Source of the DNA: Escherichia coli
Lineage (GTDB): Bacteria; Pseudomonadota; Gammaproteobacteria; Enterobacterales; Enterobacteriaceae
Assembly: GCF_041886205.1 (NCBI RefSeq)
Contig: NZ_CP169029.1
Reading direction: 5' to 3' (one strand)
DNA: 64,000 bases
Below the pieces are notes generated by a model. That model was not told where the DNA came from. It was given only the letters and a program-made list of their open reading frames with translations, and ran no database searches. This document shows, in pieces, positions 5,060 through 62,907 of this stretch. Each line of letters begins with the position of its first letter. Position 1 is the first letter of the stretch. Position numbers and translations under genes: made by a program.

Positions 5060-5180
5060 GGTTGCCGGATGTAAAATATGAAAAATATGTAGGCATGATA
5101 AGACGCGCCAGCGTCGCATCAGGCATCGAGAGCCAAATGCCAGATGCGGCGTGAACGCCTTATCTGGCCTACGAACCGAC
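5060..5180. repeat. REP/BIME cluster between ybaL and gsk
   Basis: Two or more REP units with the GCCTGATGCGACGC / GCCAGATGCGGCGTGAACGCCTTATCTGGCCTAC motif read directly. Confidence 0.6.
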
Positions 5181-12488: not shown

Positions 12489-14420
12489 TCAAATGGGGCG
12501 GATACTTTCTTCATCCAGCTCCGCATCGAAAAACCGACGCAGGGTCTGAATATTATTATCCGCAATAATGGACTCGCGCGCCTGCGCAAGTTTTTCTTCG
12601 TATATCGCCTGACGCCACTCCAGCGGCGTACGCACCGCGGGATTATCATCTTCAACGATAGTCAGTTCAACCGTTGAACCTTTTAACATGCTCAACGCTT
12701 CAGCCAGTTTTTGCTGTGCACCGCGGTTGTTCAAATGCCGCTGAGAGGAGCGCAAATGCAGACATACTGCGTTGTCGCTCTCCTCTTTCCAGGCATTTAA
12801 CGCCACCTGTTCGACCAGTTTTGGTAGCGAAAGTTGGCTCACCTGTGCCGCCCACGGGTCGCGCTCAATGGCTTCTGCCGCCAGCTTCGCCGCCAGTTCC
12901 GGCGTTTTTTCATGTTCCAGCGCTTTTTTCAGCGCCTTCGGCGTGGCGACCACTTCTTTTTGCTGCATCACTGGAGTGGTAGCCTTCCAGCGATACGCTT
13001 CTTTTTTGGCTGGCGCTTTTTCCAGCGCCGATGGCACCGGACGCGCCTGAACGCGATCGGTGACCGAAGCCAGTCTTTCCAGCGCAGCGTTATTCACCGG
13101 CCGCGCGCGGGTAGCGGCTGCCGGTTCACTCTTTTTTGCTTTGGTTGCTCCCTGCACGCGCTGCAACTGCTGGCGCGCCGCCAGCACCTGGCTGGTGGTT
13201 TCCGGGAGCGGTACAGTCGGTGCCTGCTGCGGCGCTGATTGCGGTTGCGGCGGCACCTGGGTTGGCGTCATTACTGCCGTTGGCGCGACGGGCGCAAAGG
13301 ACTGGCGTGGCACTTCTGGCTCAGGCAGAGGCATACGTGGATGGAACGCCAGCGCGCGCAGCAGCGTCATCTCAACGCCCATGCGGCGGTCCGGCGCATA
13401 CGGTAATTCTTTGCGACCAATCAACAGCGTCTGATAGTAAAGCTGAATATCCGTCGGCGGTATGGTGCGCGCCAGTTCACGCATCCGCAGCTCAATGGCG
13501 GCCATGTCGTTGCCAAGTGCAGCAGGCGAAAGTTGTACCATCGCAATACGATGCAACAGGCCGAGCATTTCCACCAGCAACGCTTCCCACTCGATACCAC
13601 GGGCAGCGGCTTCATTAATCAGCGCCATTACGCGCTCGCCGTTGGCCTCGACCATCGCTTCAACCAGCGACAGCGCCTGATCGTCATCAAGCGTACCCAG
13701 CATCGCACTGACTGCCTGGGTTGAAACCTGGCCGTCACCGCTGGCAATCGCCTGGTCGGTCAGACTTAAGGCATCTCGCAGGCTGCCTTCAGCGGCGCGC
13801 GCCAGCAATTGCAACGCCCGCGGCTCGTGAGCGATATGTTCTTCGTTGAGGATGTGCTCAAGTTGATGGCGAATTTGCTCGACATCCAGCGCCTTGAGAT
13901 GAAATTGCAAACAGCGCGACAAAATCGTCACCGGCAATTTCTGTGGATCGGTCGTCGCCAGCAGAAACTTAACGTGCTCCGGCGGCTCTTCAAGGGTTTT
14001 TAACAGTGCGTTAAAGCTGTGGCGCGACAGCATATGCACTTCGTCGATCAGATAAACTTTGAAACGACCACGCGCCGGAGCGTACTGGACGTTATCCAGC
14101 AGGTCGCGGGTATCTTCAACTTTGGTGCGCGAGGCGGCGTCGATTTCAATCAGATCGACAAAGCGCCCCTGCTCGATTTCACGACAGTTATCGCACACGC
14201 CGCACGGCGTCGCGGTAATGCCGGTTTCGCAGTTTAGCCCCTTCGCCAGCAGTCGGGCGATAGAGGTTTTTCCGACGCCACGGGTGCCGGAAAAAAGATA
14301 AGCATGATGAATACGCCCTAACGACAAGCCGTTCGCCAGTGCGGTCAGCACATGTTCCTGGCCGACGACGTCAGCAAAGGTTTGTGGGCGCCATTTTCGG
14401 GCTAAGACCTGATAACTCAT
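12489..14420 (-). CDS. dnaX: DNA polymerase III tau subunit (gamma by programmed frameshift)
   Basis: 643-aa ORF with AAA+ clamp-loader motifs; recognised as DnaX. Confidence 0.96.
   Translation of the reverse strand: MSYQVLARKWRPQTFADVVGQEHVLTALANGLSLGRIHHAYLFSGTRGVGKTSIARLLAKGLNCETGITATPCGVCDNCREIEQGRFVDLIEIDAASRTKVEDTRDLLDNVQYAPARGRFKVYLIDEVHMLSRHSFNALLKTLEEPPEHVKFLLATTDPQKLPVTILSRCLQFHLKALDVEQIRHQLEHILNEEHIAHEPRALQLLARAAEGSLRDALSLTDQAIASGDGQVSTQAVSAMLGTLDDDQALSLVEAMVEANGERVMALINEAAARGIEWEALLVEMLGLLHRIAMVQLSPAALGNDMAAIELRMRELARTIPPTDIQLYYQTLLIGRKELPYAPDRRMGVEMTLLRALAFHPRMPLPEPEVPRQSFAPVAPTAVMTPTQVPPQPQSAPQQAPTVPLPETTSQVLAARQQLQRVQGATKAKKSEPAAATRARPVNNAALERLASVTDRVQARPVPSALEKAPAKKEAYRWKATTPVMQQKEVVATPKALKKALEHEKTPELAAKLAAEAIERDPWAAQVSQLSLPKLVEQVALNAWKEESDNAVCLHLRSSQRHLNNRGAQQKLAEALSMLKGSTVELTIVEDDNPAVRTPLEWRQAIYEEKLAQARESIIADNNIQTLRRFFDAELDEESIRPI
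13131..13137 (-). promoter_or_regulatory. dnaX: dnaX programmed -1 ribosomal frameshift heptamer A AAA AAG (gives gamma subunit)
   Basis: Plus-strand cttttttgc at 13131-13139 is the reverse complement of GCAAAAAAG; encoded ...AKKSEP...; GC-rich stem-loop follows on the mRNA (13101-13128). Confidence 0.8.
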
Positions 14421-22105: not shown

Positions 22106-25258
<3,153 letters not shown>

Positions 25259-25277
25259 TACAACGTGTAATCACTAA

Positions 25278-25299
25278 GGCCGCGTAAGCGGCCTTTTTT
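25278..25299 (+). terminator. rho-independent terminator of acrB (GGCCGC-GTAA-GCGGCC + T6)
   Basis: 6-bp GC stem, 4-nt loop and TTTTTT tract 20 nt after the acrB stop. Confidence 0.7.
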
Positions 25300-25423: not shown

Positions 25424-25432
25424 GCGCTAATA
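25424..25432. repeat. IS1 target-site duplication, left copy (GCGCTAATA)
   Basis: 9 bp immediately outside the IS1 end, identical to 26201-26209. Confidence 0.9.
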
Positions 25433-25447
25433 GGTAATGACTCCAAC

Positions 25448-25951
25448 TTATTGATAGTGTTTTATGTTCAGATAATGCCCGATGACTTTGTCATGCAGCT
25501 CCACCGATTTTGAGAACGACAGCGACTTCCGTCCCAGCCGTGCCAGGTGCTGTCTCAGATTCAGGTTATGCCGCTCAATTCGCTGCGTATATCGCTTGCT
25601 GATTACGTGCAGCTTTCCCTTCAGGCGGGATTCATACAGCGGCCAGCCATCCGTCATCCATATCACCACGTCAAAGGGTGACAGCAGGCTCATAAGACGC
25701 CCCAGCGTCGCCATAGTGCGTTCACCGAATACGTGCGCAACAACCGTCTTCCGGAGCCTGTCATACGCGTAAAACAGCCAGCGCTGGCGCGATTTAGCCC
25801 CGACATAGCCCCACTGTTCGTCCATTTCCGCGCAGACGATGACGTCACTGCCCGGCTGTATGCGCGAGGTTACCGACTGCGGCCTGAGTTTTTTAAATGG
25901 CGGAAAATCGTGTTGAGGCCAACGCCCATAATGCGGGCGGTTGCCCGGCAT
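25448..25951 (-). CDS. insB: IS1 InsB' reading frame (expressed as InsAB' transposase by -1 frameshift at A6C motif)
   Basis: 167-aa frame recognised as IS1 InsB; slippery A AAA AAC motif on the minus strand at about 25887-25896 (plus-strand gttttttaaa). Confidence 0.88.
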
Positions 25952-26145
25952 CCAACGCCATTCATGGCCATATCAATGATTTTCTGGTGCGTACCGGGTT
26001 GAGAAGCGGTGTAAGTGAACTGCAGTTGCCATGTTTTACGGCAGTGAGAGCAGAGATAGCGCTGATGTCCGGCGGTGCTTTTGCCGTTACGCACCACCCC
26101 GTCAGTAGCTGAACAGGAGGGACAGCTGATAGAAACAGAAGCCAC
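25870..26145 (-). CDS. insA: IS1 InsA (transposition inhibitor / N-terminal part of InsAB' transposase)
   Basis: 91-aa [23 protein letters not shown]... zinc-finger/HTH protein, recognised as IS1 InsA. Confidence 0.92.
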
Positions 26146-26200
26146 TGGAGCACCTCAAAAACACCATCATACACTAAATCAGTAAGTTGGCAGCATCACC

Positions 26201-26209
26201 GCGCTAATA
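26201..26209. repeat. IS1 target-site duplication, right copy (GCGCTAATA)
   Basis: 9 bp immediately outside the IS1 end, identical to 25424-25432. Confidence 0.9.
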
Positions 26210-26580
26210 GATTTAATAATCCATAATCATTTAGAGGCTATTCTTAATTATTTGCGGTAATTCTTTATTCATTCCTCGGTTATTACGTCATATTCAGAGC
26301 AATCCTGGTATTAGTGTCACCAATGTCATCTGGCGATAATCCTGAAATGTTATGAACTGTTCGAGCAAACTGCTTTTACCTACTGCGGGTTGGTGCTAGT
26401 ATGAAAAAGTGAGTCCTGTCCTGCTTCCTTCCTAATTGTAATTTTTCGTAATAATGCGATGAAAACCTGCAAAGAGTGGCTTATAGTTAAGCTAACAAAC
26501 GAGAGGGCAAGTCTAGGTCAGTAAGTTTTTTCCATCCCGAAAGGTGTCCGTTAGTTCAACCACTAAGAAGGGGACGCGTT

Positions 26581-26955
26581 ATGGATGAATACTCACCCAA
26601 AAGACATGATATCGCACAGCTTAAGTTTCTCTGTGAAACCCTGTATCATGACTGCCTTGCAAACCTTGAAGAAAGCAATCATGGCTGGGTAAACGACCCA
26701 ACCTCGGCGATCAACCTCCAGTTGAATGAACTGATTGAGCATATTGCGACCTTCGCACTTAATTACAAAATTAAGTATAATGAAGACAATAAGCTCATTG
26801 AGCAGATCGACGAATATCTGGATGACACCTTTATGTTGTTCAGTAGTTATGGTATTAATATGCAGGATCTTCAGAAATGGCGGAAGTCAGGTAATCGACT
26901 ATTCCGTTGTTTTGTCAATGCGACGAAAGAGAATCCTGCGAGTTTATCTTGTTAG
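26581..26955 (+). CDS. tomB: Hha toxicity modulator TomB (YbaJ)
   Basis: 124-aa ORF recognised as TomB; directly upstream of hha. Confidence 0.93.
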
Positions 26956-26980: not shown

Positions 26981-27199
26981 ATGTCCGAAAAACCTTTAAC
27001 GAAAACCGATTATTTAATGCGTTTACGTCGTTGCCAGACAATTGACACGCTGGAGCGTGTTATCGAGAAAAATAAATACGAATTATCAGATAATGAACTG
27101 GCGGTATTTTACTCAGCCGCAGATCACCGCCTCGCCGAATTGACCATGAATAAACTGTACGACAAGATCCCTTCCTCAGTATGGAAATTTATTCGCTAA
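26981..27199 (+). CDS. hha: haemolysin expression-modulating protein Hha (H-NS co-regulator)
   Basis: 72-aa [35 protein letters not shown]...; the ORF-track frame 26735-27199 is over-extended upstream. Confidence 0.93.
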
Positions 27200-27370: not shown

Positions 27371-27958
27371 ATGAGCACAGAAAAAGAAAAGATGATTGCT
27401 GGTGAGTTGTATCGCTCGGCAGATGAGGCGTTATCTCGCGATCGCCTGCGCGCTCGTCAGCTTATTCACCGATACAATCATTCCCTGGCGGAAGAGCACA
27501 CATTACGCCAGCAAATTCTCGCTGATCTATTCGGTCAGGTGACAGAGGCTTATATTGAGCCAACGTTTCGCTGTGACTATGGCTATAACATCTTTCTCGG
27601 CAATAATTTTTTCGCCAACTTCGATTGCGTGATGCTTGATGTCTGCCCTATTCGCATCGGTGATAACTGTATGCTGGCACCAGGCGTTCATATCTACACG
27701 GCAACACATCCCATCGACCCTGTAGCACGTAATAGCGGTGCTGAACTGGGGAAACCCTTCACCATCGGTAATAACGTCTGGATTGGCGGACGCGCGGTCA
27801 TTAACCCTGGTGTGACCATTGGTGATAACGTCGTGGTAGCCTCAGGTGCAGTTGTCACAAAAGATGTCCCGGACAACGTTGTCGTGGGCGGTAATCCAGC
27901 CAGAATAATTAAAAAATTGCAATCGGTTTTTCGCAACTGTTATGCAAAATTGTGGTAA
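27371..27958 (+). CDS. maa: maltose O-acetyltransferase (left-handed beta-helix acyltransferase)
   Basis: Recognised as Maa; ORF here is 195 aa, 12 codons beyond the 183-aa K-12 length as I recall it (sense codon CAA at 27920-27922 where a stop is expected). Confidence 0.9.
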
Positions 27959-30726: not shown

Positions 30727-30840
30727 GGGTGGGGGCCCTGCCAGCTACATCCCGGCACACGCGTCATCTGCCTTGGCTGCTTCCTTCCGGACCTGACCTG
30801 GTAAACAGAGTAGCGTTGCGGGAGAACCAACAGAGCCCCC
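30727..30840 (-). ncRNA. ffs: 4.5S RNA (signal recognition particle RNA)
   Basis: Plus strand 30727-30840 is the exact reverse complement of the 114-nt E. coli 4.5S RNA as I recall it (GGGGGCUCUGUUGGUUCUCCCGCAACGC...GGCAGGGCCCCCACCC). Confidence 0.95.
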
Positions 30841-48413: not shown

Positions 48414-48600
48414 AGAGCTCTCTCTTAGTTTAATTTCCGCCAGGTAATCAGATGACACGACTGTGCTTCACGCCATCTATTAACATGTACGTCAGTATAT
48501 GGGGATGTTTCCCCCACATTCAACGCCGAGAATAGAGGAAAAATTAAAGGGGAGATAAAATCCCCCCTTTTTGGTTAACTAATTGTATGGGAATGGTTAA

Positions 48601-60599: not shown

Positions 60600-60618
60600 A
60601 TACGGTTGATAGCCGTAT
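60600..60618. promoter_or_regulatory. inverted repeat IR-B (ATACGG-N7-CCGTAT), candidate operator overlapping the predicted transcription start
   Basis: Perfect 6-bp arms with 7-bp spacer just downstream of the -10; contains the spurious ATG of the ORF-track frame at 60606. Confidence 0.5.
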
Positions 60619-60671
60619 TATGTATGAGATCGACTCCCTACGATTTCATTCAGTTAATCAAAGAGGTCATA

Positions 60672-60983
60672 ATGCCTGGAAAAACAGCCACTCTACCCGA
60701 TGTCGATAAAACGCTGAAAAATGCGCGGGTCGAACTCAAAACTAGTCCCGACGCCAAAAACAAACTTCGTGAAGCTGCGCAAGCCGTTGGGGTAGATTTA
60801 AGCGCTTTTATTTTGAGCGCTGCTATGGAACGCGCCGAAAGTGTGCTTGATAACCAACGTCGCCGTGAGCTTTCGAATCAAAGCTGGGAACTGATGAACC
60901 AACTCATCGCTGAACCTGCTCAACCGACGCTCGCCCTCAAGGCGTTAATGAAAAGGAAAAACAGCGATGGTCGACAAGCATGA
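60672..60983 (+). CDS. ribbon-helix-helix (DUF1778-like) antitoxin of a GNAT-type toxin-antitoxin pair
   Basis: 103-aa from MPGKTATLPDVDK, RBS AAAGAGG 6-7 nt upstream; RHH-like N-terminus (RVELKTSPDAKNKLREAAQAVGVDLSAFILSAAMERAESVL) resembling TacA/AtaR/KacA-type antitoxins; overlaps the toxin gene by 17 nt. Confidence 0.8.
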   Translation: MPGKTATLPDVDKTLKNARVELKTSPDAKNKLREAAQAVGVDLSAFILSAAMERAESVLDNQRRRELSNQSWELMNQLIAEPAQPTLALKALMKRKNSDGRQA

Positions 60984-61509
60984 AGAGATTACTCTGCCCA
61001 TAGTCCTCTCCTGTAATTATCAGTCTGATATTACTTATCCTGGGCAAAAACAGTTTGATTGCGGTAACCCTGTTATCGATAAATTTGTACGCGCATCGCT
61101 AAAGAAAAGTGTGCGTAATAGCGACTGTGCGGCTAAAGCACTTATTGACAGACAAAGTGGTGAACTGATCGGCATCTGTACTTTTACGGCATATTCGCTG
61201 GAAAAACAACGCGTTTCTGGCGTCCTTCAGGGTTCACAACCTTCAGAAATTGGTGTTGTCAGATTAGTCATGTTGGGGGTAGCACGGAAGTATCAAAAGC
61301 GGGGCTTTGGTCAGGACCTACTATGTGATTTTTTTGAACATGTAAAAATAATTCACCAGGCATTACCAATTAAAGGGGTTTATCTTGATGCTGACCCTGC
61401 CGCCATTAATTTTTATGCTCGTCTCGGCTTTGTTCAGCTTTCAGCGACACCAAATGCTTTTGGTGCTGTACCTATGTTTTTGGCGATTCAGCATATTCTC
61501 GCGGCTTAG
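60967..61509 (+). CDS. GNAT-family acetyltransferase toxin (TacT/AtaT/ItaT/KacT-like, probable aminoacyl-tRNA acetyltransferase)
   Basis: 180-aa ORF with acetyl-CoA-binding motif A (VRLVMLGVARKYQKRGFG), motif B (AINFYARLGF) and N-terminal FDCGNPVIDKFV typical of GNAT toxins; immediately downstream of and overlapping an RHH antitoxin. Confidence 0.85.
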   Translation: MVDKHEEITLPIVLSCNYQSDITYPGQKQFDCGNPVIDKFVRASLKKSVRNSDCAAKALIDRQSGELIGICTFTAYSLEKQRVSGVLQGSQPSEIGVVRLVMLGVARKYQKRGFGQDLLCDFFEHVKIIHQALPIKGVYLDADPAAINFYARLGFVQLSATPNAFGAVPMFLAIQHILAA

Positions 61510-61564
61510 ATTATTATCGCCACCCGCCAGGGCAAGTTTTGCCTCAGCCGGGGGCTGAGCAGCG

Positions 61565-62500
61565 TTACCACTTTTGTTCAATTGCCCCCGCTTTCAGCAA
61601 CTCCACATCCTTGCCGTTAATGGTTGCCGTTGCGGCAACGATTGTGGTCCTTACAGTTGCACAAGATTTTCGCTCAAATTCCGGTTTATAAAGAATAAGA
61701 GACGAATTACTGGTAAATGAACCAAATAGGTAATCAGTAAAGCTAATATTCAGCCGGTTTAAACCGAAAGGCGCGAAGCCAACCGTTTGGTTAATCTCCT
61801 TACCGGATGGGCGACGAATGCTGAATGTCACGCGAAGGTTGGCCACTTCGCCTAATTTATTGGTGGTGGCGAAGAGGCTATCCATGCAGGAAAAACCTTC
61901 ATCTAAAAAATTATCCCGCATCCCAGAACGGGTAACCGTGATCACGGGTAACGTATCGTCAACCGTTTTTCTGTCAATCATGTCTTTTCGACAAGTAGCC
62001 AGAAAGTCTTCCGGGCCACCATAAATGTGGACACCTTTATCAAGATATTCCTTCGCTTTCTTACAATCTACCTCAACATACTGACCATTGGCGTACATCA
62101 TGCCCAACCTGGACCATGCTAAATTCACACCGTATTGCGCGGCCTGATTAAATAGCGCATACGCTTTGGCATAATCCACCCGCACCTGCTCGCCGTCGTA
62201 GTAGATACTCCCCAGCGCTAACGGTGCTTCTCTGTCACCGTGTTTAGCGGCTAACTCGAACCATTTAATCGCTTCCTGAACATCAGGTTTGGTATCATAG
62301 CGAGGCTGATAATATTCCCAGCCTAACAGGCTCTGCGCGTCGGCACCCCCCGATTCAGCCATTTTATGCAGTGTATTTATAACATTGGGCGCAGGTTTAC
62401 CACCGTATATGCTGTCATACAATTCATGTGCTTTCTCGCTTGCCACCACGCCTGGTGAAACTATTAGCATTAAAGAAAATAGTATTCTTTTAGTTAACAT
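61565..62500 (-). CDS. secreted Sel1-like repeat (TPR-like) protein with uncharacterised C-terminal domain of about 150 aa
   Basis: 311-aa from MLTKRILFSLMLIVSPGVVASE (Sec signal peptide, AAAGG RBS upstream); about three Sel1-like repeats (e.g. AIKWFELAAKHGDREAPLALGSIYYDG, YAKAYALFNQAAQYGVNLAWSRLGMMYANGQ); C-terminal half not recognised; the ORF-track start at 62560 is probably over-extended. Confidence 0.8.
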   Translation of the reverse strand: MLTKRILFSLMLIVSPGVVASEKAHELYDSIYGGKPAPNVINTLHKMAESGGADAQSLLGWEYYQPRYDTKPDVQEAIKWFELAAKHGDREAPLALGSIYYDGEQVRVDYAKAYALFNQAAQYGVNLAWSRLGMMYANGQYVEVDCKKAKEYLDKGVHIYGGPEDFLATCRKDMIDRKTVDDTLPVITVTRSGMRDNFLDEGFSCMDSLFATTNKLGEVANLRVTFSIRRPSGKEINQTVGFAPFGLNRLNISFTDYLFGSFTSNSSLILYKPEFERKSCATVRTTIVAATATINGKDVELLKAGAIEQKW

Positions 62501-62907
62501 GTATACCTTTATGTTCTCTCTGTCATATATTTCCATAATAATTAACCACCAAACATCCATTTAATGAATAAATACAGTGCCATAAAGGCCCAAGTAATAA
62601 GCACACATTTAACCTGAAACATTATCATCGATGTCACCAAATCGTTTATTTAGTGAGATAAAAATAGCATGTTCGTAAGATAAAAAATGCACATAGCAAT
62701 CAAGAAATAATATTATTACTTTTGATGTAAAACTATTTAGCTTTAAGATTCATTTTTTTCAACATATAGAGCATTCATTTTATGAATGCAAAATAAACAT
62801 ACCTGACACACAAACTATTCTCCTCTGTAATATTTTCTCATTAACACTCTGTTTACCCAACATGCGCTCCGCACTACACTATGTGGGCATTTTTTTAAGG
62901 GGTGGTA

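Follow-up and report, generated by a model that had tools for sequence, protein, structure and literature searches.

The window analysed here, a 64-kb stretch of E. coli DNA, carries a complete copy of the insertion sequence IS1 in the spacer between acrB and the tomB-hha genes. The upstream neighbour acrB (22109-25258, plus strand) codes for a protein of 1049 aa and was assigned from its open reading frame and from the acrB annotation found in every homologous locus. A terminator scan placed the intrinsic terminator of acrB, a hairpin followed by a T run, at 25276-25295 (plus strand); this terminator is intact, and 137 bp separate it from the nearer end of IS1. On the other side of the element, tomB (26581-26955, plus strand, 124 aa) is intact, and its DNA is identical to that coding for TomB (WP_000344800.1) of strain wlxctx60; hha (26981-27199, plus strand, 72 aa) is likewise intact, its coordinates having been transferred from wlxctx60 with 0 mismatches. 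IS1 lies 174 bp past the acrB stop codon and 380 bp ahead of the tomB ATG, which are the distances given in the original prediction.

The element spans 768 bp (25433-26200) with its transposase genes on the minus strand, and was classified as IS1B by its 99.9% identity to IS1B copies and by transposase matches. An end search located the right terminal inverted repeat (IRR, 25433-25455), which faces acrB, and the left one (IRL, 26178-26200), which faces tomB. The two repeats, GGTAATGACTCCAACTTATTGAT and GGTGATGCTGCCAACTTACTGAT, match at 18 of 23 positions, and no other IS1 ends were detected in the 64-kb window, where 0 are expected by chance. A length of about 768 bp and imperfect terminal repeats of about 23 bp with the pattern GGTRATG...CCAACTTAYTGAT are characteristic of the IS1 family, and both are found here. 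The open reading frame list contains insA (25870-26145, minus strand), which starts with GTG and encodes 91 aa, and the insB' reading frame (25448-25951, minus strand; also seen in translation), which is shifted by -1 relative to insA. Both frames are joined by the A6C programmed -1 frameshift site (AAAAAAC, 25888-25894, minus strand), which is positioned in the insA frame, and a -1 shift at this heptamer results in an open InsAB' fusion of 232 aa. InsAB' scores 243.8 bits against the NCBIfam model NF033558 (IS1 family transposase; cutoff 100), also contains the N-terminal zinc-binding domain NF050000, and is letter for letter the protein named "IS1-like element IS1B family transposase" by NCBI. 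The intact 768-bp IS1 with both repeats, insA, insB' and A6C that had been proposed at this site was therefore confirmed by its ends, its reading frames and the transposase match. Among 5,426 complete E. coli genomes, the closest DNA copies are IS1B elements with 99.9% identity, and a private synonymous substitution (AGG to AGA, Arg; position 25553, minus strand) separates the window copy from the best-matching ones. The description of IS1 in PMC12428005 gives a length of 768 bp, a duplication of 8-9 bp and the InsA/InsAB' arrangement. The copy shares with the IS1B isoform of NCBI and ISfinder the length, the 23-bp imperfect repeats, the A6C -1 frameshift, the 9-bp duplication and an identical InsAB', and differs from it by the one private synonymous base and by its position. 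All the hallmarks of IS1 that are open to assessment in silico are present, and the copy is a member of the IS1B type and not a variant; the element and its mechanism are already known, and the position alone is new. All sequence components of the copy are intact, its protein is a widespread transposase, and the element is presumably active.

The element is flanked by two copies of the 9-bp target-site duplication GCGCTAATA (25424-25432 on the left and 26201-26209 on the right), which proved identical on re-inspection, as had been predicted. The duplication is exactly 9 bp long, the next outward bases being A on one side and C on the other, and identical 9-mers at fixed boundaries are expected by chance with a probability of about 4^-9 = 4e-6. 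The locus was compared with the empty sites of wlxctx60 (isolated from an Asiatic black bear, Japan), 6EVA (human) and K-12 MG1655, in all of which GCGCTAATA is present as a single copy. When IS1 and one repeat copy are removed from the window, the remaining sequence shows 0 mismatches to wlxctx60 over 5,600 bp covering acrB, tomB, hha, maa and ylaC. Both wlxctx60 and 6EVA match the empty site reconstructed in this way at 100% identity, and the same holds true for the 9.8-kb right flank. The corresponding spacer of K-12 MG1655 is 545 bp long, identical at 535 of 545 positions, and carries one GCGCTAATA at the same place and no IS, which agrees with the earlier statement that K-12 lacks an insertion here; an annotated K-12 feature at the place of insertion was not found. 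The insertion arose by simple transposition, the target being cut with a stagger of 9 bp, and nothing was deleted, inverted or co-mobilised, so that the original prediction of a transposition without rearrangement is borne out by the comparison with the wlxctx60 empty site. A composite transposon or rearrangement was ruled out, since this is the sole IS1 in 64 kb and its flanks are collinear. An origin from Shigella, which had been suspected from the abundance of IS1 there, was also rejected, as the flanks are 100% identical to those of E. coli strains.

None of the 5,426 complete E. coli genomes carries IS1 at this exact position, and the exact 29-nt junction had no match in the contigs of the metagenome collection. 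The absence of the exact site from these genomes indicates that the insertion is recent, simple and strain-specific; within the collections searched, it appears to be private to the strain. The element can thus serve as a marker of the strain, as had been proposed, and separates it cleanly from the near-identical wlxctx60 and 6EVA. It further suggests that an active IS1B has recently been mobile in this lineage.

The element had been predicted to separate the acrB terminator from the promoter region of tomB-hha, and both of these are indeed intact on either side of it. A promoter scan identified a candidate sigma-70 promoter of tomB-hha, ATGAAA-17-TATAGT, at 26459-26487 (plus strand), which begins 259 bp past the end of IS1. 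Shimada et al. (PMC3946193) give the same hexamers for the tomB/acrB spacer and mark this spacer as an H-NS site; their promoter was predicted beneath a SELEX peak and is not a mapped start site. With relaxed settings, a further candidate promoter, TTTACC-16-TAGTAT with a TG motif, was detected at 26375-26402, and all other promoter-like sites of the spacer are also still downstream of the IS. A promoter-like sequence (CTGCCA-16-TATGAT; 26166-26193, minus strand) is located inside IRL and points inward, away from tomB; we take it to be the left-end insA promoter of IS1. The left end of IS1 adjoins the tomB side, and transcription of insA consequently runs toward the 3' end of acrB. As the sole outward candidate across the junction, the relaxed scan also gave a hypothetical hybrid promoter composed of IS1 and flanking sequence, TTGGCA-15-TAGATT (26187-26213, plus strand), which would be directed toward tomB. 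Rfam searches at the gathering threshold revealed no known RNA in the spacer. A weak PdhR box has been reported for tomB (PMC7660256); disruption of this site was considered and rejected, because the box is situated some 230 bp ahead of the tomB ATG and thereby downstream of IS1.

Junction queries in both orientations against the 5,426 complete E. coli genomes revealed that IS1 has entered this region repeatedly, which had been missed in the original prediction. IS1 occupies the spacer or tomB itself in 9 genomes in the same orientation as in the window and in 18 genomes in the opposite orientation; the empty-site search added strain ET650, which brings the total to 28 of 5,426 genomes. An apparent restriction to the same orientation turned out to be an artefact of query design, as the 18 genomes were added by a query with reversed IS1. 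Twenty-five loci were retrieved and their IS1 ends mapped, which resulted in 24 distinct IS1 events, including that of the window, across about 730 bp. All events but one have their own 8-9-bp duplication, and the IS1 copies are 92-99.6% identical to the window copy; this spread of identities points to independent insertions by different IS1 isoforms in different backgrounds. Expressed as the number of nucleotides between the acrB stop codon and the IS1 end, with the orientation in brackets, the events in the spacer are located at 40 (-), 103 (+), 118 (+), 138 (+), 168 (-), 168 (+), 171 (-), 174 (-, the window), 187 (-), 193 (+), 194 (+), 195 (+), 199 (-), 265 (+), 273 (+), 275 (+), 292 (+), 389 (-) and 421 (+), and those inside tomB at 586 (+), 718 (+), 723 (-), 753 (-) and 773 (+). 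There is no orientation bias (9:15, p=0.31). Nine events fall within 32 bp (168-199 nt past the acrB stop codon), which is the part of the spacer with the lowest GC content (12-30% GC in 40-bp windows, compared with 51% for the whole window). The same search in the ampG-cyoA spacer (460 bp, 37% GC), a control of similar size and AT-richness that holds the cyo promoter and may be under stronger purifying selection, retrieved 0 genomes in either orientation. The 27-28 genomes observed compare with about 8-11 under uniform density (Poisson p 2e-7 to 4e-5), an estimate that counts genomes without correction for kinship and uses one control spacer. The acrB-tomB region is a hot spot for IS1, and the enrichment is real but modest. 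A search of the full-text literature retrieved no report of IS1 at acrB or tomB, the sole related item being a mini-Tn10 insertion (PMC5010248).

In TUM13773 (NZ_CP128912.1), an IS1 in the opposite orientation (locus L026, 1630-2455) lacks a target duplication and is accompanied by an adjacent deletion of about 385 bp. Spacer positions 104-488 are lost, among them the putative tomB-hha promoter, and 57 bp remain ahead of the tomB ATG; expression of tomB-hha in this strain probably depends on read-through from IS1. The coding sequence of tomB is interrupted by IS1 in five strains, namely COL60J (L001), FCI23 (L002), SC516 (L015), Ec-RL2-1X (L017) and SY033 (L020). These insertions occur in both orientations, each with a 9-bp duplication and with hha intact; they look like natural knock-outs of an antitoxin-like partner, and the downstream hha is probably subject to polar effects. 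The copy of ET650 (NZ_CP100936.1; locus L027, 1667-2433) is a divergent IS1 of 767 bp with 95.8% identity, which interrupts the terminator of acrB within its T tract, 40 nt past the stop codon, and is flanked by the 8-bp duplication GCCTTTTT. The 9-bp target TAAGTAGCG, which is located 6 bp upstream of the target used in the window, was used twice independently, once in LHM10-1/CP52E (L004/L005) and once in SEV1 (L019), in opposite orientations and by different IS1 variants. This reuse indicates that insertions cluster tightly around a GC island, GTAGCGC, inside the AT tract.

The insertion is best explained as a recent, simple transposition of IS1B into an AT-rich tract of the spacer, guided by AT content and H-NS and with a near-neutral outcome, to which we assign a probability of roughly 80%. 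An intact IS1B copy entered the acrB-tomB spacer, reportedly bound by H-NS, in the tract with the highest AT content; the target was cut with a 9-bp stagger and GCGCTAATA duplicated during repair, the flanks being neither lost nor rearranged. The location would be set by the preference of IS1 for AT-rich DNA, a preference that has been known for a long time (Zerbib et al. 1985, cited in PMC9330008). It would probably be reinforced by the property of H-NS-bound DNA to act as a transposon sink, and a non-coding, non-essential region beside a non-essential operon would tolerate the insertion. H-NS-bound DNA has been described as a transposition hot spot and transposon sink for elements of the IS5 family (PMC11335895), and by analogy H-NS may have had the same role in the targeting of IS1. 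As in that system, many independent insertions are found in a short AT-rich region for which H-NS binding has been reported (PMC3946193); however, the elements studied there are of the IS5 family (ISAba13, IS903, insH3), and a corresponding behaviour of IS1 would be an extension of those results. Since the site lies inside a regional IS1 hot spot, the AT-rich preference is the best explanation for its location, and the recurrence of IS1 makes passive target preference likelier than a special event.

With regard to expression, the element leaves the acrB terminator on one side and the tomB-hha promoter on the other untouched and is transcribed toward acrB, so that at most a modest effect is to be expected. 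We assume that the effect on tomB-hha would be near-neutral; if there is one, it would be at most modest and would arise from the separation of the upstream AT tract from the promoter. Through the insertion, the promoter is set apart from the upstream half of the AT tract by an additional 777 bp of DNA with 53.5% GC. A regulatory effect on tomB-hha, with the pleiotropic consequences through H-NS that had been proposed, is possible, with little positive support from the sequence, and the plausible route that remains is an architectural one, in which the nucleation or bridging of H-NS could be altered. The activation of bgl by IS1 or IS5 (PMC9678765) is a similar case insofar as the IS enters AT-rich, H-NS-associated DNA upstream and leaves the promoter untouched. 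However, the bgl insertions were selected as Bgl+ and lie within about 100 bp of the promoter, whereas the IS is 259 bp upstream here; furthermore, bgl is silenced by H-NS, and tomB-hha is not known to be silent.

The same spacer could also be read as a site of adaptive regulatory change, in which IS1 splits the AT-rich H-NS tract from the promoter by 777 bp of GC-richer DNA, alters silencing by H-NS in the manner of IS1 and IS5 upstream of bgl, and so shifts the dosage of Hha and TomB, the recurrence of insertions then reflecting parallel selection. The 24 independent events in about 730 bp would fit this proposal, as would the five events that disrupt tomB, the 385-bp deletion that removes the promoter, and the lack of any event in the interval from the putative -35 hexamer to the tomB start codon. 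H-NS binding to the spacer has been reported (PMC3946193), loss of tomB-hha changes bladder colonisation (PMC3464220), and a mini-Tn10 insertion in the same spacer was found among the clones left after 700 generations of competition, although the authors of that study saw no obvious reason for an advantage (PMC5010248). However, the insertions are nearly all tip singletons and none has become fixed in a clade; both orientations are represented, and the events concentrate in the tract with the lowest GC content, as target preference alone predicts; and the window copy is 259 bp away from the promoter and disrupts nothing known. We therefore regard an adaptive origin as unlikely. The more general proposal that the spacer and tomB form a locus of parallel evolution, at which natural lineages repeatedly retune or switch off Hha/TomB and hence H-NS silencing of foreign genes by means of IS1, the window insertion being one such regulatory allele, is doubtful to a similar or slightly greater degree.

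A role of IS1 as a new outward promoter, in which the -35-like TTGGCA of IRL and the flanking TAGATT would drive tomB-hha, appears very improbable. The hybrid sequence matches 9 of 12 positions in the relaxed scan, but its 15-bp spacer is suboptimal, the site was not reported by the standard scan (16-18 bp), and a leader of about 360 nt would have to be transcribed through the native promoter region. InsA binds the terminal region of IS1 (IRL). The -35 element overlaps both the inward IS1 promoter and the binding site of InsA/InsAB', and should therefore be occluded. IS1 fusion promoters have been documented for bla by Prentki et al. (1986) and for acrEF by Olliver et al. (2005), both cited in PMC9330008, and share with the present site the outward TTGGCA 8 bp from the IS1 tip; the flank here, in contrast, offers TAGATT at a spacing of 15 bp, and tomB follows at a distance of 380 bp, preceded by a promoter of its own. 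Least probable of all, with hardly any chance of being correct, is the suggestion that the insertion is an artefact of the assembly or belongs to a more extensive rearrangement, for example a composite transposon, an inversion or a deletion endpoint. IS1 is a multicopy element, repeats are a classic source of misassembly, and the related genome TUM13773 does have an IS1-adjacent deletion at this locus. However, such an origin is at odds with the perfect 9-bp duplication, with the collinearity and 100% identity of both flanks to IS-free relatives, and with the single pair of IS1 ends in 64 kb, and the private SNP within the copy argues against a collapsed consensus repeat.

The recent transposition of IS1B into the AT-rich tract thus remains the preferred explanation, and the insertion is that of a known element, real but ordinary. 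Its wider interest lies in the observation that the acrB-tomB spacer draws many independent IS1 insertions. If these were to change the levels of Hha and TomB, they would constitute a recurrent natural route to altered H-NS/Hha silencing, biofilm formation or persistence; such a reading is not called for by anything in the sequence.

Some further features were noted elsewhere in the window. The maltose O-acetyltransferase gene maa (27371-27958, plus strand) encodes 195 aa, compared with 183 aa for the K-12 protein and the NCBIfam model; the difference is a C-terminal extension of 12 residues, and the annotation of wlxctx60 has the protein at this greater length as well. Rfam matches at the gathering level were obtained for naRNA4 (5092-5169, minus strand), the dnaX frameshift element (13092-13156, minus strand), the small SRP RNA ffs (30736-30832, minus strand) and sraA (48485-48580, plus strand), all four of which are expected for this chromosomal region. 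An accessory segment (60606-62560) is located directly past cyoE, and the low-GC DNA extends to about 62850. It includes a gene for a TacA-like antitoxin (PF08681; 60669-60983), which overlaps that of a GNAT acetyltransferase (60967-61509), and the pair looks like a toxin-antitoxin system of the TacAT type. The segment also codes for a repeat protein of 331 aa (61565-62560, minus strand), the DNA of which has a GC content of about 31%.
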